From positions 7,007 through 71,006 of the forward strand of contig CALMRZ010000065.1 of NCBI GenBank assembly GCA_937872225.1: a stretch of DNA of 64,000 bases, written 5' to 3'. Origin of the DNA: an uncultured Spirochaetota bacterium. Lineage in GTDB: Bacteria; Spirochaetota; UBA4802; UBA5550. How positions within the stretch are numbered: position 1 is the stretch's first letter; every line of letters begins with the position of its first letter. Shown here one piece after another: positions 13,366-55,405 of the stretch. The translations under genes and the position numbers were made by a program. The notes beneath the pieces were generated by a model. That model saw nothing but the letters and a program-made list of their open reading frames with translations, was not told the DNA's origin and did not search any database.

Positions 13366-13398
13366 ATCTCCTCCATAAATATATATCCATAGTATTCA

Positions 13399-13450
13399 TG
13401 CAGGAGTCATCAGCCATCGGGCAGTTAACGGTGAACTCCATCACCTTTGG
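13399..13450 (-). ncRNA. Fluoride riboswitch (crcB RNA motif) aptamer
   Basis: The minus strand reads AAAGGUGAUGGAGUUCACCGUUAACUGCCCGAUGGCUGAUGACUCCUGCA, containing GGnGAUGGnGUUCnCC, AACUGCC and CUGAUGAnUCCUnC of the consensus. The 3' CUCCUGCAU can pair with the downstream AUGGAGGAG covering the RBS, a translational ON-switch design. Confidence 0.7.
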
Positions 13451-13540
13451 CACGGTGATCATTACATATTCAGGTTAACACAAAAACATAATAGACATTT
13501 ATATGTCAAGAACATATTCATTACGTGACCACTGTTTGCA

Positions 13541-27631: not shown

Positions 27632-28930
27632 TTAGTATCCCGCCATCGCCTCCACTTCCTTCACCGCGGTTATCGCGGCAACGGTCCCGTCCGCCACGGC
27701 GGTCGTTATCTGCCGGTACGGCTTGCTTCGCACGTCGCCGGCCGCGAACACGCCCGGCACATTGGTGTGCAGCAGCTCGTCTGCCGCAACGTAGCCCCAC
27801 TGGTCCAGTTTCAAGGCGCCGTTAAAGATGCTTATATTCGGCTTCAGTCCGGCGAAAATAAAGACGCCGTCGGTAGCCATTTTTCTTCTCTCGCCTGTTT
27901 TCAGGTCTTCTATGGTGACGTCCATGCCGCCGTCAGGCCGCCTTTCAAAGGCCCTGGGCTCATGCTCAAAGATGAATTCTATTCTCGGGTTGGCGAAGGC
28001 TTTCTCCTGGGCCTCCTTGTTGGCCTGAAGCTTGTCGAACTGGTGGACAATGGTGACCTTCCTGGCGAACCTGGTTATGAAGAGGGACTCCTCAACGGCG
28101 GAATTGCCTCCGCCGATGACGACGACTTCCTTATTATCGTAATATTTCGCGTCGCAGGTTGCGCAGTACGAGATGCCCTTCCCCTTGTATTCGGCTTCGC
28201 CCGGCACATTCAGCTCCCGGTATGAGGACCCGGTGGCTATTATTATCCGCTTCGCACGGATCGTCTCGAAACCGTCAACAAGGATAGTCTTTGCCGCGAG
28301 ATCAACGTTCGTCACTTCGACGGCCTGGCGGAACTCGACACCGGCGTGCTTGGCCTGCTCCGTCATGAAATGGGTAAGCATGAAGCCCTCAACGGGCTTT
28401 TCGAAGCCGGGATAGTTCGACACCAGGTGGGTCGTGGTCACCTGACCGCCCGGCAGGGCCTGGTCAACGAGGATGGTCTTCACCTTCGCCTGGGCGGCGT
28501 AGATGCCCGCGGTCAGGCCCGTCGGCCCGCCGCCGATGATGAGGATATCGCAGTCGGTCATGACCGGCTGCACCATGGCCCGGAGCTCATCTGCCTTTTT
28601 CTTATCGATCAGCAGTTCCAGGTTCCCGACAAGATCAGATCTTCTGATCCCGCCGCTCAGGCGCTGTCCCACTTCTTTGCCGTCCTTGAAAAAAATCACG
28701 GTGGGCGACGACATGACGCCGAGCTTCTCGGCCAGGGGCCGGTTCTCCTGCCGGAACATCTTCATGAACCTGATGTCCTTGCCGTATAGTTCGCTCAACG
28801 GTTCGAATTTAGCCGCCAGCGCCTCACAGGGAGGGCATTCCGTCGAATAAAAGTCCAGCACGACGCTGCCGCCGCCCAGCACTTCGCTTTCGAATTGAGA
28901 TGCGTTGATGTACGATATCAGTTCCGACAT
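27632..28930 (-). CDS. Thioredoxin - thioredoxin reductase fusion protein
   Basis: N-terminal thioredoxin fold with a CPPC redox motif (YSTECPPCEAL). The TrxR part has FAD/NAD GxGxxG motifs (IIGGGPTG, VIGGGNSA), the redox-active CATCD, and GVFAAGD. Confidence 0.8.
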   Translation of the reverse strand: MSELISYINASQFESEVLGGGSVVLDFYSTECPPCEALAAKFEPLSELYGKDIRFMKMFRQENRPLAEKLGVMSSPTVIFFKDGKEVGQRLSGGIRRSDLVGNLELLIDKKKADELRAMVQPVMTDCDILIIGGGPTGLTAGIYAAQAKVKTILVDQALPGGQVTTTHLVSNYPGFEKPVEGFMLTHFMTEQAKHAGVEFRQAVEVTNVDLAAKTILVDGFETIRAKRIIIATGSSYRELNVPGEAEYKGKGISYCATCDAKYYDNKEVVVIGGGNSAVEESLFITRFARKVTIVHQFDKLQANKEAQEKAFANPRIEFIFEHEPRAFERRPDGGMDVTIEDLKTGERRKMATDGVFIFAGLKPNISIFNGALKLDQWGYVAADELLHTNVPGVFAAGDVRSKPYRQITTAVADGTVAAITAVKEVEAMAGY

Positions 28931-36437: not shown

Positions 36438-37550
36438 ATGAAGAATATTCTCTCATCAAGAATCGGCATGATAGTGGCCGGTTCGGCCATCGGGATCATT
36501 GCGGTTTTATTGCAGGCCGCGGGGAACCCGCCGAACATGGGGATCTGCGTCGCCTGCTTCGAGCGCGACATAGCCGGTGCTCTGGGGCTCCACCGGGCTG
36601 ATGTTGTCCAGTACCTGAGGCCGGAAATACCGGCAATCGTTCTCGGGTCGTTCATTATTTCCACCGTCATGAAGGAATACAAGCCGCGGGCCGGGTCATC
36701 AACGCTGATCCGCTTTTTTCTCGGGATGTTCGCCATGGTCGGCGCCCTTGTTTTTCTCGGGTGCCCCTGGCGCGCCCTTCTCCGCCTTGCCGGCGGCGAT
36801 CTGAATTCGCTCCTCGGCCTGCTCGGCCTTGTCTGCGGCATCGGCATCGGAGTGGTCTTCCTCAATAGGGGATACAGCCTTGGGAGATCGCACGACAACA
36901 GAAAAGCCAGCGGATGGCTATTCCCTGCCTTCATGCTGGGCCTCGTGCTTCTCAATGTATCCGGCGTGTCATTTTCCGAAGGCGGGCCCATATTTTTCAG
37001 CGCCAAGGGACCCGGCTCAATGCATGCCAACGTCATTATCAGCCTCGCCGCCGGCCTCGCCTTCGGGGCCATAGCCCAACGGAGCAGGTTCTGCACCATG
37101 GGATCCATACGCGACATCATCCTCGCCCGGGACTTCCATCTCATGACCGGCGTCGCATCACTCCTGACGACCGCATTTATCGGGAACCTTATACTCGGCA
37201 CATTCAATCCGGGCTTTACGGGCCAACCGGTGGCGCACAGCAACCATCTCTGGAACTTTCTCGGCATGACCCTCGCGGGACTGGCCTTTGCCCTCGCAGG
37301 CGGCTGTCCCGGGAGACAGCTCATTCTTTCCGGGGAAGGCGATGCCGACGCGGGGGTGTTCGTCATGGGCATGATCACCGGCGCGGCCTTTGCGCACAAT
37401 CTGTCCCTGGCCGGCAAGCCCGACACCATGGCCGGAGACGTGTTTACACTGGGAGGGCCCGGTATCTATGGCCAGGCGGCCGTTATCACCGGCATCATTT
37501 TCTGCCTCATCATAGGCTTCACCATGCGCGAAAAGCTGACAGTGAAGTAA
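36438..37550 (+). CDS. YeeE/YedE-family inner-membrane protein (thiosulfate/selenium-compound transporter family)
   Basis: Duplicated Cys-containing motifs GICVACFERD and SRFCTMGSIRD (the conserved Cys in both halves), with about 9 TM segments. Confidence 0.7.
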   Translation: MKNILSSRIGMIVAGSAIGIIAVLLQAAGNPPNMGICVACFERDIAGALGLHRADVVQYLRPEIPAIVLGSFIISTVMKEYKPRAGSSTLIRFFLGMFAMVGALVFLGCPWRALLRLAGGDLNSLLGLLGLVCGIGIGVVFLNRGYSLGRSHDNRKASGWLFPAFMLGLVLLNVSGVSFSEGGPIFFSAKGPGSMHANVIISLAAGLAFGAIAQRSRFCTMGSIRDIILARDFHLMTGVASLLTTAFIGNLILGTFNPGFTGQPVAHSNHLWNFLGMTLAGLAFALAGGCPGRQLILSGEGDADAGVFVMGMITGAAFAHNLSLAGKPDTMAGDVFTLGGPGIYGQAAVITGIIFCLIIGFTMREKLTVK

Positions 37551-37572
37551 TAATGACACAAAGGAGAACCCC

Positions 37573-37785
37573 ATGTCTGAACAAGTAATAGACGCCCGGG
37601 GCCTGTCGTGCCCCCAACCGGTGGTGCTGGTCCGCAAAGCGATCAGCGACGGACGCACGGAATTCAGTATAATCGTCAGCAGCGATGTGGCAAGGGAAAA
37701 CGTTCTGAGGACCCTGAAAAACAGCGGTATGAAGGGGATCGTCAGCAGCAACGGCGATGATATCATCATCAAGGCATCCAGATAA
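37573..37785 (+). CDS. TusA-like sulfurtransferase (YeeD/YedF-like)
   Basis: CPxP motif in DARGLSCPQPVV. 70 aa. An AAGGAGAA RBS precedes. Confidence 0.75.
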   Translation: MSEQVIDARGLSCPQPVVLVRKAISDGRTEFSIIVSSDVARENVLRTLKNSGMKGIVSSNGDDIIIKASR

Positions 37786-43483: not shown

Positions 43484-43750
43484 TCACCCGCCTAACGCAA
43501 CATCAATCCAGGTAATGGCTTCATGGGGGCACGCGGATATGCATCTGCCGCAGGCGTCACAGAGTTCGTAATCGAACACTATGCATTCCGGGCTGCAGGG
43601 TACGTCCATGGCAATGCAGTATTTGATGCATTTCGCGCAGCAGTTGCCGGAAGATTCATAAATCGCCTTTAGCGGACAGGCCTCAATGCATAGGTTGCAC
43701 TTTTTGCATTTTTTCGCATCTACCGCCGGCAGTCTTCTTTCAGCCTTCAT
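43484..43750 (-). CDS. 2x[4Fe-4S] ferredoxin
   Basis: CKKCNLCIEACP and CDACGRCISACP motifs. Confidence 0.7.
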   Translation of the reverse strand: MKAERRLPAVDAKKCKKCNLCIEACPLKAIYESSGNCCAKCIKYCIAMDVPCSPECIVFDYELCDACGRCISACPHEAITWIDVALGG

Positions 43751-45293: not shown

Positions 45294-46610
45294 ATGAATA
45301 ACAGCGGAGAAAAAAATATCATCCTCAACAGCATCGCCGACGGGGTCTTCACCGTTGATATGGATTTCCGGATCACCTCCATGAACCGAGCAGCGGAGGC
45401 TATTCTGGGAATTGAAGAAAAAGACGCCGTGGGGAGGCTCTGCTTTGAAATTTTCCATGCCAACATCTGCGAGCATTCCTGCGCTTTGAAAGAAACGTTG
45501 GACACCGGCAATAATATAATCAATAAAACGATATATATCGTCAATTCCGGCGGGGAGAGGGTCCCCATCAGCGTAAGCACCGCGCTTTTAAAAAATGGGA
45601 AAGGCGATGTAATCGGCGGTGTCGAGACATTCCGCGATATCACCGCTATAGAAACACTCCGCAAGGAAATCGAATCGAGCTACACCTTCGAGGACATTGT
45701 CAGCAAAAACAAAGTCATGCGCGAGCTGTTCGGCATTCTCCCCGACATCGCGACAAGCGACAGCTCGGTCCTCATAGAAGGCTCCAGCGGCACCGGGAAA
45801 GAACTTATCGCCCGGGCCATCCATTCGTTGAGCAATAGAAAGACAAAACCCCTGGTCGTCATCAACTGCGCCGCGGTCCCCGACAATCTCCTTGAATCGG
45901 AATTATTCGGCTACAAGGCGGGCGCCTTCACCGACGCGAAAAAAGACAAGCCGGGAAAAATAGCCCTGGCCGAGGGAGGCACGCTATTTCTCGACGAGAT
46001 AGGCGAAATATCGCCCGCAATCCAGGTCAAGCTCCTCCGCTTCATCCAGGAGCGCGAATACGAGCCGCTGGGCGGCGTTTCCACCGTTAAATCCAATGTA
46101 CGAATAATCGCGGCCACGAATAAAATACTCACGGAAGAAGTCCGCGGCGGCAATTTCAGGGAAGACCTCTATTATCGGATCAACGTTATCAATATAAGAC
46201 TTCCTGCCTTGAGAGAACGAAAAGAGGACATCCCCTTCCTTATCAAACATTTTATCCACAAGTTTAATGTCCTCAAGGGCAAAAATATCGAGGGCGTGAG
46301 CGATGATGTCATGAACATACTCATGAACCATGACTATCCCGGCAATATCCGCGAGCTGGAAAATATTATCGAGCATGCCTTCGTCCTCTGCCGTGAACCA
46401 TATATCCGTCAGCTGCATCTTCCCAACCATTTTAAAAATATCGTAACGCCGCTTCACGACAATTTGACCCTCGAAGAAATGGAGCGAATTTATATACTCA
46501 AAGCGCTGGAAAAAAATTCATGGAACAGAAAGAATACGGCTAAAGACCTCGGCATTGACACAACCACACTCTGGCGGAAGATAAAAAATCTCAAGATTGC
46601 TAAAGAATAA
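45294..46610 (+). CDS. Sigma-54-dependent transcriptional activator (PAS sensor, AAA+ sigma-54 interaction domain, Fis-type HTH)
   Basis: Walker A GSSGTGKE, GAFTDA (GAFTGA variant), ESELFGY, and the C-terminal HTH NTAKDLGIDTTTLWRKI. Confidence 0.85.
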   Translation: MNNSGEKNIILNSIADGVFTVDMDFRITSMNRAAEAILGIEEKDAVGRLCFEIFHANICEHSCALKETLDTGNNIINKTIYIVNSGGERVPISVSTALLKNGKGDVIGGVETFRDITAIETLRKEIESSYTFEDIVSKNKVMRELFGILPDIATSDSSVLIEGSSGTGKELIARAIHSLSNRKTKPLVVINCAAVPDNLLESELFGYKAGAFTDAKKDKPGKIALAEGGTLFLDEIGEISPAIQVKLLRFIQEREYEPLGGVSTVKSNVRIIAATNKILTEEVRGGNFREDLYYRINVINIRLPALRERKEDIPFLIKHFIHKFNVLKGKNIEGVSDDVMNILMNHDYPGNIRELENIIEHAFVLCREPYIRQLHLPNHFKNIVTPLHDNLTLEEMERIYILKALEKNSWNRKNTAKDLGIDTTTLWRKIKNLKIAKE

Positions 46611-46615
46611 CCGGG

Positions 46616-46664
46616 CATTGCGAAATGCAATACTTAACATGTAATCACATTGCACTTTGCAATA
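46616..46664. promoter_or_regulatory. Two palindromic sites, CATTGCgaaaTGCAAT and ATTGCActtTGCAAT, about 190-235 bp upstream of the sigma-54 promoter; candidate enhancer-binding (UAS) sites
   Basis: Inverted repeats ATTGC-N4/5-GCAAT read directly. Their position is appropriate for bacterial enhancer-binding-protein sites. Confidence 0.35.
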
Positions 46665-46852: not shown

Positions 46853-46868
46853 TGGCATGATAGTTGCT
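46853..46868 (+). promoter_or_regulatory. Sigma-54 (-24/-12) promoter TGGCATgatagTTGCT
   Basis: GG and GC sit at canonical spacing (consensus TGGCAC-N5-TTGCA). It lies about 12 nt upstream of the first ATG of the 46881 operon, so there would be a very short or no leader, which adds some uncertainty. Confidence 0.5.
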
Positions 46869-47303: not shown

Positions 47304-47659
47304 AATTAGCGGTGTCAACCGGCGGGAAAAATCTTAATGCGCCAATGGACGAGCGGTTCGGCCGCGCCGTCGGATTTATTATTTTCGATACATCGACCGG
47401 TTCCTATGAATATATCGATAACGAAAAGAACATGGATTCCGCCCAGGGAGCGGGCATCCAGTCGGCGAAAACGGTCATCGATGCCGGCGCGGCAATCCTC
47501 ATCACAGGCAACGTCGGCCCCAAGGCGTATGCCGCCTTGGCCACCGCGGGAATCGAAATATATCTCAAGAACGGAGGTACGGTGGGCGAAGCGATTGAGG
47601 CGTATCGTTCCGGCTCACTGTCAAATACGCCGGAGGCGAACGTTGAGGGCCACTGGTGA
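47300..47659 (+). CDS. NifX/NafY-like FeMo-cofactor-binding-domain protein (start taken at MKLAVSTGG)
   Basis: MKLAVSTGGKNLNAPMDERFGRAVGFIIFD...ILITGNVGPKA. Confidence 0.65.
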   Translation: MKLAVSTGGKNLNAPMDERFGRAVGFIIFDTSTGSYEYIDNEKNMDSAQGAGIQSAKTVIDAGAAILITGNVGPKAYAALATAGIEIYLKNGGTVGEAIEAYRSGSLSNTPEANVEGHW

Positions 47660-47698: not shown

Positions 47699-48172
47699 AT
47701 GGATAAATCGACGGTATATGATGAGTTCAAAGGCTATAATTGCTATCCTCTTGGAACGGGCGAGGAGATGATTCGGGCAAGGATGGTTGAGTTGTTTGAT
47801 AAAATCATCAAAAAGAATGAAACCTGTCTTGTCAAGGCGCGGGATAAGGGAATGGAAAAGTTGATGTCAAGGATACTGGCGGTTAAGGCGCGGATGGAAC
47901 GCATGCGGAAAGAAATGACCCATGTCGAACCGAACGTTGAATACAAGTTTGAACCCCTGTCTCCCTCTGACGAGGAAATGCTGAAGGAAATTGACGGTAA
48001 AATGGAAGAGATAATCCAGCAAACAATCGACGCAATCGAACCTTTGACCTGCATGGAAACCGACATGCATATAAGCGACCGGTTTGCCATGATGGATTCT
48101 TCCCTGCGGGAAATCGAGAATCTCTGCCACAGACGCATGGCAATATTTAAAAAGCTGCGCGTGTATGGATAA
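47699..48172 (+). CDS. Hypothetical protein (157 aa)
   Basis: A GGAGG RBS precedes. No motif recognised. Confidence 0.5.
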   Translation: MDKSTVYDEFKGYNCYPLGTGEEMIRARMVELFDKIIKKNETCLVKARDKGMEKLMSRILAVKARMERMRKEMTHVEPNVEYKFEPLSPSDEEMLKEIDGKMEEIIQQTIDAIEPLTCMETDMHISDRFAMMDSSLREIENLCHRRMAIFKKLRVYG

Positions 48173-48587: not shown

Positions 48588-48674
48588 GCCTTCTTACCAT
48601 AGCGCCAGGCGCTCCCTGATGTCGGATTATTGATATCGGGGAGCGCTGAATTTATTACAATTTAAGGAAAGTAC

Positions 48675-49520
48675 ATGATAACAAAAATTACCGTCTTATG
48701 TGAAAACAGCGTTATTGTACCTGCCCCACCCCTCATCGGCGAGCATGGGTTCTCTTGCCTTATCGAATCTGAAGACGCCACCCTCTTTGATACCGGCCAG
48801 GGATTCGGGATCGAGAACAACATGGGCAAAATGGGGAAACAGTTCGATGCAATAAAACGTATCGTCCTCAGCCATGGCCACTTTGACCATACCGGCGGGT
48901 TGCTCACCGTGCTACAAAATCGGAAGGAGAAGACGCCCGTTTACCTTCATCCTGATGCCTTTAATGACAAGAAGGCAGTCATTCCCCTGCCGCAGAACAC
49001 CATTGAAATGCCCATCGGCATGAGGGCCTCTAAAGAAGAATACGAAAAGGCCGGTGCCGATTTTAAGTTCATCAATGGGTTCGTAAAAATCACGGATTCC
49101 ATATCGGCCCTGTCTGATGTCAAGCGTCCGTCTGACTGGAAAACATGGGATACCCGTCTCAAACAGAAGATCAACGGTGGAATAAAAGACGATCCTTTCA
49201 CCGATGACCTTTCATTGCTTATCAATACCGAATCTGGTCCAGTGGTGTTACTGGGCTGTGCTCACGCCGGCATCGTCGAGATACTGAATGACCTGTCGGA
49301 AAAAACCGGGAACACGGAATTCCACGCTGTCATTGGCGGAACACACCTTGAAAGCGCGCCCGAGGAGTACGTGGCCCTTGCCATGGACACGTTGAGAAAA
49401 TTCAAGGTGAAAAAAATAGCCGTATCCCACTGCACCGGACTTAAAATGGCCGGCAGGTTCGCCGCAGAATTTAAAAACGAGTTCGCCAACGCTTCAGTCG
49501 GCAGCGTTTTCGAGTTTTAA
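48675..49520 (+). CDS. MBL-fold metallo-hydrolase
   Basis: HxHxDH motif LSHGHFDHTGG and a downstream His/Asp pattern. Confidence 0.7.
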   Translation: MITKITVLCENSVIVPAPPLIGEHGFSCLIESEDATLFDTGQGFGIENNMGKMGKQFDAIKRIVLSHGHFDHTGGLLTVLQNRKEKTPVYLHPDAFNDKKAVIPLPQNTIEMPIGMRASKEEYEKAGADFKFINGFVKITDSISALSDVKRPSDWKTWDTRLKQKINGGIKDDPFTDDLSLLINTESGPVVLLGCAHAGIVEILNDLSEKTGNTEFHAVIGGTHLESAPEEYVALAMDTLRKFKVKKIAVSHCTGLKMAGRFAAEFKNEFANASVGSVFEF

Positions 49521-49534
49521 TGGGAGTCGATCAT

Positions 49535-50392
49535 ATGAATATAGCCATCGCAAGCGGGAAAGGAGGCACGGGGAAAACGACCATTGCCATGTCCCTGGCG
49601 TCCTGCTACGCAAGGAATGGCATGAATGTCGCCCTTCTCGACTGCGATGTAGAGGAGCCGAATGTCAATCTTTTCCTGAAAGCTGAAATCGAGAAGACGG
49701 AAACGTTCAGTGTGCTTGTCCCGCATGTTGACGGATCCCGCTGCAACGGCTGCGGAGAGTGCGAGCGTATATGCGCCTTCAGCGCCATCGTTCTCGTTAA
49801 GGGAAAGCCGCTGGTTTTTAGCGATATGTGTCATTCCTGCGGCGGGTGCTTTCACGTTTGTCCCGAACGTGCGATAGAGGAAACAGATAAAGCGACTGGT
49901 GTTATTGAATCCGGTTCAAGGGACGGAATATGCTTTGCCGGCGGCAGGCTCAATATCGGCGAGGCAATGTCCCCGCCGCTCATCAGGGAAGTGAAACGCC
50001 GTCATCCCGAATCGGAAGTACGGATATTCGACTCCCCTCCCGGAACATCCTGCCCGGCGGTTGAGGCCATGAAAGACAGCGATTTTGTCGTCCTGGTGAC
50101 GGAGCCGACCCCCTTCGGTTTGAACGATTTCATTCCCGCCGCGGGCGCGGTGAGGGCGCTGGGCATCCCCTTCGGTGTTGTTGTGAACCAGGCATTTGGT
50201 GACGGTTCGATCATGCGTGAATATAAATCAAGAGGATATAACGTAATAGCGTCCATCCCACACTCCCGCGGAATCGCAGAAGCATATTCGCGCGGAGATT
50301 GTATTTCATACATTCTCGAACACTTCCGGGAAGAAATAGAAAAAATTGCAAGCCATGCGGAATATTACAATAAAAGGACCGCGCGGGTATGA
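49535..50392 (+). CDS. MinD/ParA-superfamily P-loop ATPase with inserted 2x[4Fe-4S] ferredoxin domain (CooC-like)
   Basis: Deviant Walker A IASGKGGTGKTT. CNGCGECERICAF and CHSCGGCFHVCP. Start taken at MNIAIAS. Confidence 0.75.
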   Translation: MNIAIASGKGGTGKTTIAMSLASCYARNGMNVALLDCDVEEPNVNLFLKAEIEKTETFSVLVPHVDGSRCNGCGECERICAFSAIVLVKGKPLVFSDMCHSCGGCFHVCPERAIEETDKATGVIESGSRDGICFAGGRLNIGEAMSPPLIREVKRRHPESEVRIFDSPPGTSCPAVEAMKDSDFVVLVTEPTPFGLNDFIPAAGAVRALGIPFGVVVNQAFGDGSIMREYKSRGYNVIASIPHSRGIAEAYSRGDCISYILEHFREEIEKIASHAEYYNKRTARV

Positions 50393-51264
50393 TACAGGAA
50401 CTGGTCATCATCAGCGGCAAGGGAGGCACCGGAAAAACGAGCATGGCCGCATCACTCGCGTTCCTTGCAAAAAACAAGGTCATCGCCGACTGCGATGTGG
50501 ACGCCGCAGACATGCACCTGGTGTTGCAGCCGGAAGTTAAGCAGTCAACGGTATTTGAAGTCGGACTGAAGGCTTCAATCGGCAGGGATATTTGCAAATC
50601 GTGCGGCGAATGCCTCCGGTACTGCCGCTTTGACGCCATCAGCGATGATTTTGTCGTCGACCCGATATCCTGCGAAGGCTGCGGCGTGTGCGCCCATTTC
50701 TGCCCCCATGAAGCCATTGAAATGAAGCGTCACATGTCCGGTAAATGGTTCGTGTCCGATACGCGCCACGGCCCACTCGTTCACGCGCAACTGGGCATCG
50801 CCGAAGGGAATTCAGGCAAGCTTGTCACTCTTATAAAAAAGAAAGCCAGGGAAATCGCCACCGAGAAAGGACACGAACTCGTCATTGTTGATGGCTCCCC
50901 GGGAACAGGGTGCCCGGTCATCGCCACGGTGTCGGGCGCGTCGCTGGTCCTCATCGTGACCGAGCCGACGGTTTCGGGCATGCACGATTTACGGAGGGTA
51001 TTGGAGTTGGCCCGTCATTTCAACGTCAGGACAGCAGTCTGCGTCAACAAGGCCGACATCAATCCCGATAACGTCGCTGCAATTGAGGCATTCTGTTCGA
51101 ACAACGGAATCCCCATAGCCGGAGCCATTCCCTATGACACGGACGTGACCCGGGCGCAGATCGCCGGTAAAAGCGTCGTAGAGCATTCAAATGGACAGGC
51201 AGCTCGGGCAATAAAAACAACATGGAATACTATCTCTGAAATTCTATCAGGGACCAGTCAATAA
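50389..51264 (+). CDS. Second MinD/ParA-superfamily ATPase with ferredoxin insert (paralogue of the previous gene)
   Basis: IISGKGGTGKTS, CKSCGECLRYCRF and CEGCGVCAHFCP. Overlaps the previous gene by 4 nt. Confidence 0.75.
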   Translation: MIQELVIISGKGGTGKTSMAASLAFLAKNKVIADCDVDAADMHLVLQPEVKQSTVFEVGLKASIGRDICKSCGECLRYCRFDAISDDFVVDPISCEGCGVCAHFCPHEAIEMKRHMSGKWFVSDTRHGPLVHAQLGIAEGNSGKLVTLIKKKAREIATEKGHELVIVDGSPGTGCPVIATVSGASLVLIVTEPTVSGMHDLRRVLELARHFNVRTAVCVNKADINPDNVAAIEAFCSNNGIPIAGAIPYDTDVTRAQIAGKSVVEHSNGQAARAIKTTWNTISEILSGTSQ

Positions 51265-51283
51265 AAAAGGAGAATACATTATC

Positions 51284-52150
51284 ATGTGCAACAGCAAAGA
51301 AACAGACGTATCAGCAACAGCAGCGCCCAACCGCAACAAAGACGCCGAGGACAAGGCCTCTATCAACGAGAACATGGCCCGGATAGCCCATAAAATAATC
51401 GTACTCTCCGGCAAGGGAGGGGTGGGGAAAAGCACGGTCGCGGTCAACCTTGCCGTCTCCCTCGCGGAAAAAAAGTTCAAAACCGGCCTTCTCGACATAG
51501 ACATTCACGGCCCCAGCGTGCCGAAGCTCCTTGGAATTGACGGCGGACAGGTAATGGGGGCCAGAAACGGCAAAATGACGCCGGTTGAATACAATGAATG
51601 CTTGAAGGTTATATCAATAGGTTTTCTGCTACAAGATAATGACACCGCGGTCATATGGCGCGGCCCCATGAAATACACGGTGATCAAGCAGTTCCTGGCC
51701 GACGTCGATTGGGGCAATCTTGACTATCTTATCGTCGATTCCCCTCCCGGCACCGGTGATGAGCCGCTGTCGATATGCCAGCTTATCGAAAACGCGGACG
51801 GCGCGGTCGTGGTCACTACCCCCCAGGACGTGGCCCTCATCGACGTGCGCAAGTCAGTCAATTTCTGCAAACAGCTTCACATGCCGGTCATTGGCGTCAT
51901 AGAGAACATGAGCGGCTTTACCTGTCCCCATTGCGGAAAGGAAACGGACATTTTCAAAAACGGCGGCGGGAAGAAAATGGCGGAAGACATGGGCGTGCCG
52001 TACCTCGGGGAAATACCTATCGAGAGCCATATCGTGGCCAGCGGCGACAGCGGCAATCCTTTTCATGTCAATAATAATGCGGGCGAAACGCCTGCCCATA
52101 AAAGCTTTTCGGGTATCATTAATACCATACTGCACGGAGCAAAAAAATGA
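51284..52150 (+). CDS. Mrp/NBP35/ApbC-family Fe-S cluster carrier ATPase
   Basis: VLSGKGGVGKSTVAVNLA, DSPPGTGDE, and the CxxC FTCPHCG. Confidence 0.85.
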   Translation: MCNSKETDVSATAAPNRNKDAEDKASINENMARIAHKIIVLSGKGGVGKSTVAVNLAVSLAEKKFKTGLLDIDIHGPSVPKLLGIDGGQVMGARNGKMTPVEYNECLKVISIGFLLQDNDTAVIWRGPMKYTVIKQFLADVDWGNLDYLIVDSPPGTGDEPLSICQLIENADGAVVVTTPQDVALIDVRKSVNFCKQLHMPVIGVIENMSGFTCPHCGKETDIFKNGGGKKMAEDMGVPYLGEIPIESHIVASGDSGNPFHVNNNAGETPAHKSFSGIINTILHGAKK

Positions 52151-52485
52151 AGATTGCATTACCCGTATCAGACAAGAAGTTGTGCTTGCATTTCGGTCAT
52201 TGCGAACAATTCGAGGTGTTCGACGTGGACGAAAAAACAAAACACATAACCGGGCGGGCGACCTTCAGCGCGCCGCCCCACGAGCCGGGGCTTCTGCCAC
52301 GCTGGCTCGCCGACAAAGGGGTTAAGTGCGTCATCGCCGGCGGCATGGGATCCCGCGCCGTTGCCATATTCAAGGAAAACGGCGTCAACGTCATCACCGG
52401 CGCCCAGCCTGGAGAGCCGGCGGCCATTGTGAGGGACTACCTGGAAGGCCGCCTGGTTACGGGATCTAACGTCTGCGACCACTAG
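52147..52485 (+). CDS. NifX/NafY-like FeMo-cofactor-binding-domain protein
   Basis: MKIALPVSDKKLCLHFGHCEQFEVFDVD. Confidence 0.7.
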   Translation: MKIALPVSDKKLCLHFGHCEQFEVFDVDEKTKHITGRATFSAPPHEPGLLPRWLADKGVKCVIAGGMGSRAVAIFKENGVNVITGAQPGEPAAIVRDYLEGRLVTGSNVCDH

Positions 52486-52493
52486 GCGGCGAT

Positions 52494-52775
52494 ATGGATG
52501 AGACCATTCTCGTTCTGCAGCTCGGCGACGGATTCTGCATCGAATGCGCGGCAAAGCACGCGTACAACAAAATGGTGCTGGACATCATGACGTCAGATGA
52601 CACGCCCGGTCCCGGCATCGAGTCTATGCTTGACCTGTTGGTGGACTTCCTCGAAGGCGCTGATTTCGCACAGCTTCGCGGCTCCCATGAGGCCCTTGCC
52701 GGAGTTAAAGAATCGCGATGCAGCCTGCACAGAGACGAGCATGGACATCCATGCGTATCAGTGATTAGTCCATGA
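52494..52775 (+). CDS. Hypothetical protein (93 aa)
   Basis: ORF in the operon. No motif recognised. Confidence 0.4.
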   Translation: MDETILVLQLGDGFCIECAAKHAYNKMVLDIMTSDDTPGPGIESMLDLLVDFLEGADFAQLRGSHEALAGVKESRCSLHRDEHGHPCVSVISP

Positions 52776-52803
52776 CCTGACTTGACATTACGAAGGAGCC
52801 ACT

Positions 52804-53040
52804 ATGCCAACATATGATTATCTTTGTTATTCATGCGGAAACAGATTTGAAAGCTTCCAGAACATGAGCGACCGGCCCCATGAAACATGCCCTTCCTGCG
52901 GGGGTCCGGTAAAAAGGTTGATTTCCGGCGGGTCCGGATTTATCATAAAAAGCGGCGGTAAAACGAAAACCGCCTGCGGGAGCGATGTCCCCTGCTGCGG
53001 CAGGGGCGAGCCCTGCGGAAAATCAAATGGTTGCGGATAA
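52804..53040 (+). CDS. FmdB-family zinc-ribbon protein
   Basis: [16 protein letters not shown]...CPSCGG matches the FmdB pattern (MPIYEYxCxxCGHxFE). Confidence 0.7.
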
Positions 53041-53174
53041 TATCATTAAAGGAGGTGCCTATGCCTGAAGAATTCAAGCCTGGTTGCGCTAGGCCCACGG
53101 GAGGTCCCGTGGGGGAAGAACCGGTCAAAGCAGGGCCGGAAGAGACAAATATGAAAAAGGAGGAACGAAAAGCC

Positions 53175-53786
53175 ATGGTCCAAGTTGGTAAAAAAGCGCC
53201 GGATTTTACAGCGCCGGCTTATCTCCAGGGAAAATTCGTAAACGTCAAACTCTCTGAATATCTCGGAAAGTGGACGCTCCTCTGCTTCTATCCAGGGGAT
53301 TTTACCTTTGTTTGAGCAACGGAAATTTCGGCGGTCGCCGAAAAATATCCCGAGTTCCAGAAGCTCGGCGTGCAAATTCTTTCTATGAGCATCGACAGCG
53401 TATTCGTGCATAAAATGTGGAATGATAATGAACTTTCAAAAATGGTAAAGGGTGGCGTCCCCTTCCCCATGCTGTCCGACGCGGGAGGCAGGGTCGGCAC
53501 TGCGTATGGCATCTATGACGCGGACGCCGGAGTGGAGACCAGGGGCAGGTTCATCATCGACCCGGACGGCGTGGTGCAGGGGTTCGAGGTGCTCACGCCC
53601 CCAGTTGGGCGCAACGTGGCTGAATCCCTCAGGCAGGTTCAAGCCTTTCAACTAGTCCGTAACAGCAAAGGCACCGAAGCCACACCGTCGGGATGGAAAC
53701 CGGGAAAAATGACCCTGAAGCCGGGCCCGGACCTGGTGGGCAAAGTCTGGGAGGTTTGGAAAACGAGCATGGCTTTCGACGATTGA
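53175..53786 (+). CDS. Peroxiredoxin (AhpC/Prx) with in-frame UGA at 53313-53315 replacing the peroxidatic Cys: probable selenocysteine peroxiredoxin (PrxU-like). The ORF track splits it into 53031-53315 and 53370-53786.
   Basis: ...[16 protein letters not shown][TGA][35 protein letters not shown]... is colinear with the Prx active-site FYPLDFTFVCPTEI. The reading frame is continuous across the TGA. A hairpin follows (see SECIS feature). Start taken at ATG 53175 (RBS AAGGAGG); the earlier in-frame ATG at 53031 is possible. Confidence 0.7.
53318..53348 (+). other. Bacterial SECIS-like hairpin about 10 nt downstream of the UGA: UUUCGGC-GGUC-GCCGAAA
   Basis: A perfect 6-7-bp stem with a 4-nt apical loop GGUC containing G and U, at the distance from UGA expected for SelB-binding elements. 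Confidence 0.5.
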
Positions 53787-53883
53787 TTTTTTATGTGTCA
53801 GGAGCCCTTTTCGATAAGGTTTTCCTGACACATATTTGTATTTCTTTCCTTTAAAAACTATTTAACATATAAAGTGGTATATT

Positions 53884-55041: not shown

Positions 55042-55405
55042 CATCCCCACCATTACCTGATCTCAAGCCGGCTCTCTCCAGTGCCAATAACTCGCTGGAC
55101 ATGAATTAATCTTATCAAATCGCCTTTCATAATATGAATCCTCGAGCAGTGCGACTAAGCAAGGACTATACCATGGCCTCGCTTAATTTTATATACTAAA
55201 ACACTAAAATAATTCAATTAATACTTGATTTCAGAGGCTATTTCTATTATTAATGCAAAAAAATTCAAAAAAGCATGCAGAAAATAAGATTTGATTAATC
55301 TTCAAAGCCGCGCCTGCAGTCCGGCCGCATGCCTTTGATTATTACACCTTGCAATTCGTTATATACCGATTGCCATTAATTAAACATCGATCACACAGGT
55401 AAAAT

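Follow-up and report, generated by a model that had tools for sequence, protein, structure and literature searches.

A PrxU-type selenocysteine peroxiredoxin predicted across an in-frame TGA codon in an uncultured Spirochaetota bacterium

One reading frame and one peroxiredoxin domain span the TGA

We analysed a stretch of 64,000 nucleotides (hereafter the window) from contig CALMRZ010000065.1 of an uncultured Spirochaetota bacterium (assembly GCA_937872225.1), in which mechanical calling of open reading frames (ORFs) reports two neighbouring ORFs, 53031-53315 and 53370-53786. These are the two parts of a single peroxiredoxin (Prx) gene, which very probably (about 0.93 by our estimate) encodes PrxU, a selenocysteine (Sec) peroxiredoxin of the AhpC/Prx1 fold, with a UGA codon predicted to be read as Sec through a Sec insertion sequence (SECIS) hairpin. 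One reading frame runs on the plus strand from the ATG at 53061 to the stop at 53786, passing through an in-frame TGA at 53313-53315. The elements of the gene are as follows.

53061..53786, plus strand: prxU coding sequence, 241 codons including the predicted Sec85; predicted thioredoxin-dependent peroxiredoxin of the PrxU family (NF040737 and Pfam, continuous frame, ratio of nonsynonymous to synonymous substitution rates, dN/dS)
53313..53315, plus strand: UGA codon for the predicted selenocysteine 85, at the peroxidatic position of the P78-x3-T82-x2-U85 motif
53326..53343, plus strand: predicted bacterial SECIS hairpin TTTCGGC-GGTC-GCCGAAA, a 7-bp stem (53326-53332 with 53337-53343) closed by the apical loop GGUC (53333-53336)
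53049..53057, plus strand: ribosome-binding site AAGGAGGTG ahead of ATG 53061, read from the sequence; orthologue N-termini start at the same Met
53792..53850, plus strand: intrinsic terminator 3' of prxU, a long stem followed by a U-rich tract (-23 kcal/mol, z = -7.25, 0/200 shuffles fold as well)

The initial annotation had already proposed that the two ORFs are one gene, and the frame, continuous over the TGA, agrees with it. In comparison with Spirochaetota relatives (dS 0.7 to ~2), the segments before and after the TGA each gave a dN/dS of 0.02-0.05; both halves must therefore be translated in one frame and be under strong purifying selection. The same annotation let the gene begin at 53031, and this had to be corrected. 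The TTG at that position is an artefact of the ORF caller, as the start is placed at ATG 53061 by the preceding AAGGAGGTG, by the orthologue N-termini, which all read M-P-E-E-F-K-x-G-C and begin where this ATG lies, and by the PrxU model, which aligns from residue 7.

Scored with Cys put in at the TGA codon, the joined protein reached 420.6 bits against the NCBIfam equivalog NF040737 (peroxi_PrxU; cutoff 270), with residues 7-237 lying on model positions 2-233, so that the PrxU type suggested earlier is upheld. Pfam recognised an AhpC-TSA domain (130 bits) together with a 1-cysPrx_C domain, and the AhpC equivalog TIGR03137 gave 185.2 bits, below its cutoff of 272. Among solved structures, typical 2-Cys peroxiredoxins (4fh8, human Prx2 and Prx1) and AhpC came out best; these matches extend over residues 40-229 and have E-values between 1e-48 and 1e-37. 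In the printed alignments with 4fh8 and Prx2 the TGA fell exactly on the peroxidatic Cys of FYPLDFTFVCPTEI, where it had originally been located, and the alignment did not place this Cys elsewhere; Pfam and NCBIfam agree. The break between the two called ORFs is consequently in the middle of a single Prx domain, at its catalytic residue. The catalytic set (P78, T82, U85, R161) is intact, P78, T82 and R161 being invariant in alignment A2.

With the typical 2-Cys peroxiredoxins (AhpC, human Prx1/Prx2, 4fh8) the window protein shares the fold and the catalytic residues. It differs from them in having a predicted Sec in place of the peroxidatic Cys, Thr208 in place of the resolving Cys of the C-terminal VCP motif, and two extra cysteines, Cys9 and Cys75; lacking a canonical resolving Cys, it does not fall within the typical 2-Cys Prx/AhpC class. 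Both extra cysteines are invariant in all orthologues, Cys75 standing ten residues before the Sec position. Cys9 belongs to an N-terminal extension of 38 residues (window 53061-53174), which in the 82 orthologues (see below) consists of a near-invariant Cys9 motif followed by a variable charged linker. An AlphaFold model of a natural Cys-form homologue has a confident core and an N-terminal arm with pLDDT below 50, at which the distance of Cys9 to the active site cannot be judged.

Conservation of the TGA at the catalytic codon

For a broader view of the catalytic codon, we scanned one genome per species and obtained 80 loci, which together with locus L001 and the window made a sample of 82 orthologous sequences. 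TGA occupies the catalytic codon in all of them (82/82). The loci belong to at least five phyla, namely Spirochaetota (the nearest, with 87-96% identity), Thermodesulfobacteriota, Calditrichota, Acidobacteriota, KSB1, Fibrobacterota and others. Five natural Cys-forms (L082-L086) were also found, with TGC or TGT at the site. Among the best 120 of the closest public proteins, the residue at the site is W in 107, G in 1 and Cys in 9. In the sole homologue checked at the DNA level (P0006; L001 135-857), the stored W corresponds to a TGA that the gene caller had translated under an alternative genetic code. In public collections the catalytic residue of such orthologues is mostly entered as Trp or Gly, which hides a selenoenzyme; that mistranslation of the Sec codon is so widespread in these protein sets is in itself a modest lead.

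A six-frame scan of the window for further genes with an in-frame TGA produced no convincing case. Two candidates were set aside: (i) read-through of the NifX-like ORF ending at 47659 (TGA at 47657) into the same-frame ORF at 47699, 13 codons further on, where AAGGAGG precedes the second ATG and the two are separate genes, and (ii) a ferredoxin-like ORF (43484-43750), which has a plain TGA end.

A hairpin under selection downstream of the TGA

The perfect hairpin UUUCGGC-GGUC-GCCGAAA that had been described ten nucleotides downstream of the TGA is present at 53326-53343, and its proposed SECIS-like nature is supported by covariation, by published criteria and by a loop shared with Escherichia coli fdhF. 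It begins 10 nt past the TGA and its loop 17 nt past it; it is included in the minimum-free-energy fold of the region, and the 18-nt hairpin alone folds with -8.8 kcal/mol. The published bacterial SECIS (bSECIS) model asks for a loop of 3-9 nt, a stem of 4-16 bp, a distance of 16-37 nt between UGA and loop, a free energy of -7.5 kcal/mol or lower, and a G at the first or second position of the loop, with G or U as the usual next base and with flanking loop bases able to pair (PMC13188914). The window hairpin agrees with the model on every point, with its 4-nt loop, 7-bp stem, position of the G, spacing of 17 nt and energy of -8.8 kcal/mol.

Covariation was assessed in an alignment of 81 sequences (A1), with 500 shuffles and with slid controls. 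The stem positions pair in 99.7% of the cells, as against only 39-71% in the slid controls, and 73 double-change cells were observed where the shuffles gave 20.9 ± 3.3; in none of the 500 shuffles did the percentage paired, the number of double changes or the score for covariation come up to the value observed. RNAalifold independently predicts the same 7-bp stem. Compensatory changes are found at columns 24:39 and 27:36 and at the loop-closing columns 30:33. The variable stem pairs are exactly those at synonymous third codon positions: Ile3 with Glu3 is U-A in 56 sequences and C-G in 22, while Ser3 with Ala3 is G-C in 48, A-U in 22, G-U in 4, C-G in 3 and U-A in 3. The first and fourth loop bases (30:33) covary likewise (A-U 56, G-C 23, G-U 1) around an invariant G-U dinucleotide at the tip, the loop being mostly AGUU in the orthologues and GGUC in the window. 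This covariation is unusually clean and limited to synonymous sites, and the alignment could be the starting point of a covariance model for SECIS elements of the PrxU type.

In the E. coli fdhF SECIS (MG1655 record) the hairpin likewise lies inside the coding sequence just past the UGA and has an identical GGUC loop, at a UGA-to-loop distance of 18 nt compared with 17 nt in the window prxU. Unlike fdhF, most prxU orthologues carry the AGUU loop with its covarying first and fourth bases. Among the five Cys-forms, four have a weakened or missing stem and the fifth (L083) has kept the stem and lost the G-U. In detail, L083 (2723-2770) retains a full 7-bp 'fossil' hairpin with the loop GAUC, and in L082 and L084-L086 the stem is partly or fully lost. 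To judge from these sequences, this looks like a series of decay steps following Sec-to-Cys conversion.

Alternative explanations and points against selenocysteine

That the TGA is a genuine stop, leaving a Prx pseudogene or two small ORFs, is what mechanical ORF calling would suggest, and the Sec machinery is not seen within the window. It is nevertheless hard to reconcile with a TGA kept at the same codon in all 82 loci across phyla, with a downstream dN/dS equal to that upstream, with a break inside one domain at the catalytic residue, and with the absence of a ribosome-binding site ahead of GTG 53370, and we regard it as highly improbable. Still closer to negligible is a reassignment of TGA to Trp or Gly (genetic code 4 or 25), to which the 107 W and the 1 G among the 120 closest database proteins would otherwise lend some weight. 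Elsewhere in the window TGA serves as a normal stop codon. It terminates the NifX-like ORF whose TGA lies at 47657, and also the MinD-like gene (50390) and Mrp (52148), after each of which the next gene starts. As it ends well-supported genes, the organism does not have a reassigned code. Spirochaetota and Thermodesulfobacteriota use the standard genetic code; neither a tRNA-Trp(UCA) nor in-frame TGA codons at conserved Trp positions are seen in the window; and a peroxidatic Trp or Gly would inactivate the enzyme, the natural variants being Cys only.

A third explanation accepts the single gene and denies the hairpin its role: the stem would arise as a side effect of encoding the peptide I-S-A-V-A-E-K, or would serve the opposite strand as a terminator, with read-through depending on something else. 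The stem does lie entirely within conserved codons, the 71-nt fold is unremarkable alone (z = -1.49), and a consensus scan calls the reverse complement terminator-like on the minus strand. Yet the variable stem positions are synonymous and co-vary (Ile3-Glu3, Ser3-Ala3) with four pair types, and the Cys-forms encode nearly the same peptide (EISAVAD in L086, EITAVAEK in L084) with weakened stems or altered loops. The minus-strand terminator was dismissed because the G-U pairs are compatible with the sense transcript only; moreover, no minus-strand gene ends at the hairpin. On balance, it is very improbable that the hairpin is anything other than a SECIS.

Several observations weigh against a Sec-encoding prxU and have to be set beside the evidence above. 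Insertion of Sec at residue 85 is a prediction from sequence. The hairpin, a perfect 7-bp helix, is without the bulged U of the fdhF element, and no extended lower stem is evident. No Rfam SECIS match was obtained, either for the whole window at gathering thresholds or for 53200-53450 at E-values up to 10, where only chance hits appeared; this is expected from a gap in library coverage, bacterial SECIS elements being poorly covered, rather than being evidence against a SECIS. ARAGORN found no tRNA genes in the whole window, hence no tRNA-Sec, and no selA, selB or selD was recognised among the window ORFs, which were read by eye and only in part scanned against family libraries. On comparative evidence, absence of the Sec machinery from the genome nevertheless appears very unlikely. 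We treated a yedE/yedF pair as the only genomic marker of selenium use in the window.

36438..37785, plus strand: yedE (putative selenium transporter; TIGR04112, 485.1 bits, cutoff 200) and a TusA/YedF-like gene, called adjacent as TusA

The YedF/TusA-like product has 70 aa and a CPxP motif. The next gene after the pair encodes a double-cubane-cluster reductase (NF040772, 469 bits).

Relation to known PrxU proteins

The 'Peroxiredoxin (Prx), TxxU' is an experimentally verified bacterial selenoprotein, founded on the PrxU of Eubacterium acidaminophilum (Sohling et al. 2001), and members of the family are frequent in Deltaproteobacteria and Clostridia (PMC13188914, PMC1794560). Treponema denticola, the only spirochaete in a survey of 2006, was listed without a Prx selenoprotein (PMC1794560). 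Like the founder, the window protein is above the equivalog cutoff, has its predicted Sec at the peroxidatic position of PxxxTxxU, lacks a C-terminal resolving Cys and comes from an anaerobe-type host. It differs in that this host is an uncultured member of the Spirochaetota, in the 38-residue N-terminal extension with its invariant Cys9, and in the position of the gene at the end of a cluster resembling the orp genes of Desulfovibrio vulgaris Hildenborough (DvH). The founder protein reportedly has 203 residues with Sec at position 47.

The window gene belongs, as an ordinary member, to a selenoprotein family that is already known and curated, and it leaves the current understanding of selenoproteins unchanged. 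An up-to-date annotation pipeline that includes the PrxU model would give the gene its name; the main value of the finding is a correct annotation where a standard ORF caller splits it. In addition, prxU offers a cheap marker of the decoding of UGA as selenocysteine in this uncultured Spirochaetota lineage.

Proposed mechanism

By analogy with the established bacterial mechanism, with the UGA (53313-53315) in the A site, the downstream hairpin would present its G-U dinucleotide on the closed apical loop; SelB-GTP-Sec-tRNA(Sec) would bind this G-U, Sec would be inserted at residue 85, and translation would run on to 53786. The Sec85 selenolate would then reduce peroxide, itself becoming a selenenic acid. 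The initial annotation assumed that a Sec enzyme of this kind would have a substantially higher reactivity than its Cys counterpart. Because the C-terminal resolving Cys is absent (Thr208), recycling would be expected to proceed directly through thioredoxin, or via Cys9 on the disordered N-terminal arm or Cys75; a role for either cysteine as the resolver of the selenenic acid is speculative. A candidate reductant system is encoded elsewhere in the window.

27632..28930, minus strand: thioredoxin-thioredoxin reductase fusion, candidate reductant system for PrxU (TIGR01292, 322.8 bits, just under the cutoff of 343.45; N-terminal thioredoxin domain)

At the level of transcription, prxU is the final gene before a strong terminator and closes a tightly packed cluster of orp-like Fe-S/NifX genes, with the gene of an OrpR-like sigma-54 activator lying upstream.

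An orp-like cluster upstream of prxU

The features of this cluster, in their order along the window, are given below.

45294..46610, plus strand: OrpR-like sigma-54 enhancer-binding protein (Pfam PAS, AAA+ for sigma-54 interaction, and HTH_8; C50-x8-C59-x3-C63 in the PAS domain)
46617..46663, plus strand: two exact palindromes ATTGC-N5-GCAAT (at 46617 and 46649), 32 bp apart and ~200 bp upstream of the sigma-54 element
46853..46868, plus strand: sigma-54 -24/-12 promoter-like element TGGCATgatagTTGCT (TGGCAT-N5-TTGCT), 13 nt before the first NifX-like gene
48608..48647, plus strand: intergenic hairpin of 18 bp, flanked by the genes for DUF5320 and the MBL-fold protein and thus lying between the sigma-54 promoter and the prxU block
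48675..52775, plus strand: orp-like gene block with an MBL-fold protein, two MinD-like 4Fe-4S ATPases, the Mrp P-loop part and the NifX/Di-Nase part of MrpORP, and a 93-aa unknown protein (NF041136 etc.)
52804..53040, plus strand: FmdB-family zinc-ribbon gene, 20 nt upstream of prxU (TIGR02605, 67.7 bits; PF09723), an adjacency kept in Spirochaetota relatives

The element TGGCATgatagTTGCT is the only match to TGGCACG-N4-TTGCW with one mismatch in the 64 kb. It is followed by the promoter-proximal genes, comprising two NifX-like genes, an ORF of 157 aa without a family match (47699-48172) and a DUF5320 gene. The palindromes are candidate binding sites of the activator, with counts of the pattern across the whole window that are not above chance; a copy with one mismatch occurs at 55341-55355. 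From 48675 to 53786 the intergenic gaps are at most 29 nt, and a strong terminator follows only after prxU. The MrpORP model (NF041136) hit two separate ORFs with 393 and 126 bits, each under the cutoff of 450. MrpORP is encoded here as two overlapping ORFs (51284-52485, plus strand), one for the P-loop part and one for the NifX/Di-Nase part, and it is also split in Spirochaetota relatives. The FmdB gene upstream of prxU is an all-Cys form; a UxxU selenoprotein form of this family is listed in a recent review (PMC13188914).

These features resemble the orp system of DvH, whose OrpR has Fe-S-binding C52/C61/C65 in its PAS domain (PMC8359166). The window activator matches it in domain order and in the C-x8-C-x3-C spacing within PAS, the promoter is likewise a sigma-54 -24/-12 element, and NifX-like, MinD-like Fe-S and Mrp proteins are encoded in the cluster; a three-Cys PAS activator, a sigma-54 promoter and the characteristic genes are thus all present. 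In contrast to DvH, with its two divergent operons, the genes of the window cluster share a single orientation. MrpORP is divided here between two ORFs, the cluster additionally ends in MBL, FmdB and PrxU genes, and the palindrome ATTGC-N5-GCAAT is not the same as GGGCGYRTTTTGCGCCC, the OrpR site of DvH (PMC8359166). No peroxiredoxin is named among the orp genes in PMC8359166 and PMC6345978, and in the OrpR paper (PMC8359166) the word does not occur at all.

The initial annotation had called prxU the last gene of a sigma-54-controlled Fe-S/NifX-like operon. The activator, the palindromes, the -24/-12 promoter and the terminator after prxU lend this description partial support, and the final position of the gene stands; co-transcription from the sigma-54 promoter is putative, and the hairpin at 48608-48647 intervenes. 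This conserved hairpin may act within the cluster in internal termination, in attenuation or in transcript processing. It is near-identical in two relatives (L002 and L006), and in two others (L004 and L005) a hairpin of other sequence was seen by eye, unscored, where the alignment places it. A second sigma-54 promoter was looked for before the gene at 48675 and none was found. Since the hairpin separates the promoter-proximal genes from the block, prxU may or may not be expressed from the sigma-54 promoter.

The block from the MBL-fold gene to PrxU, usually together with a downstream YibE/F gene, is syntenic in 7 Spirochaetota metagenome-assembled genomes (L002-L007 and L009; some contigs are short), and orp-type genes occur within 6 kb of prxU in ~10 other loci. 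Elsewhere the neighbours of prxU are Fur/PerR-like regulators (9 loci), KatG (5 loci) and CoA-disulfide-reductase/rhodanese genes. This distribution fits a general role in peroxide defence with a lineage-specific orp link. A more specific proposal would make PrxU, instead of an antioxidant acting on its own, a working part of a redox-sensed OrpR/sigma-54 orp module in this Spirochaetota lineage and, recurrently, in Thermodesulfobacteriota, with Cys9 resolving the enzyme via an Se-S bond with Sec85. The synteny in the 7 Spirochaetota loci, the orp-type genes in the ~10 others and the invariance of Cys9 and Cys75 speak for it; the other prxU genes that adjoin Fur/PerR-like or KatG genes, and the unmodelled arm, weigh against it, and we consider it doubtful. 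If true, it would represent an N-terminal-arm variant of the 2-Cys mechanism that is not described for peroxiredoxins in the literature searched. The OrpR/sigma-54 orp-like link is in any case a modest lead towards the protection or regulation of this Fe-S machinery in anaerobes, and the invariant N-terminal Cys arm is a further modest lead.

In Thermodesulfobacteriota, a CoA-disulfide-reductase-like/rhodanese fusion is often encoded near prxU (for instance L023 2020-3720 and L076 3979-5679), and Cys-form PrxU genes lie near MBL-rhodanese fusions (L083 1053-2447 and L084 4117-5553). Finally, the only Rfam hit of the window is a fluoride riboswitch (RF01734) at 13394-13454 on the minus strand, with 59.3 bits against a gathering score of 34.

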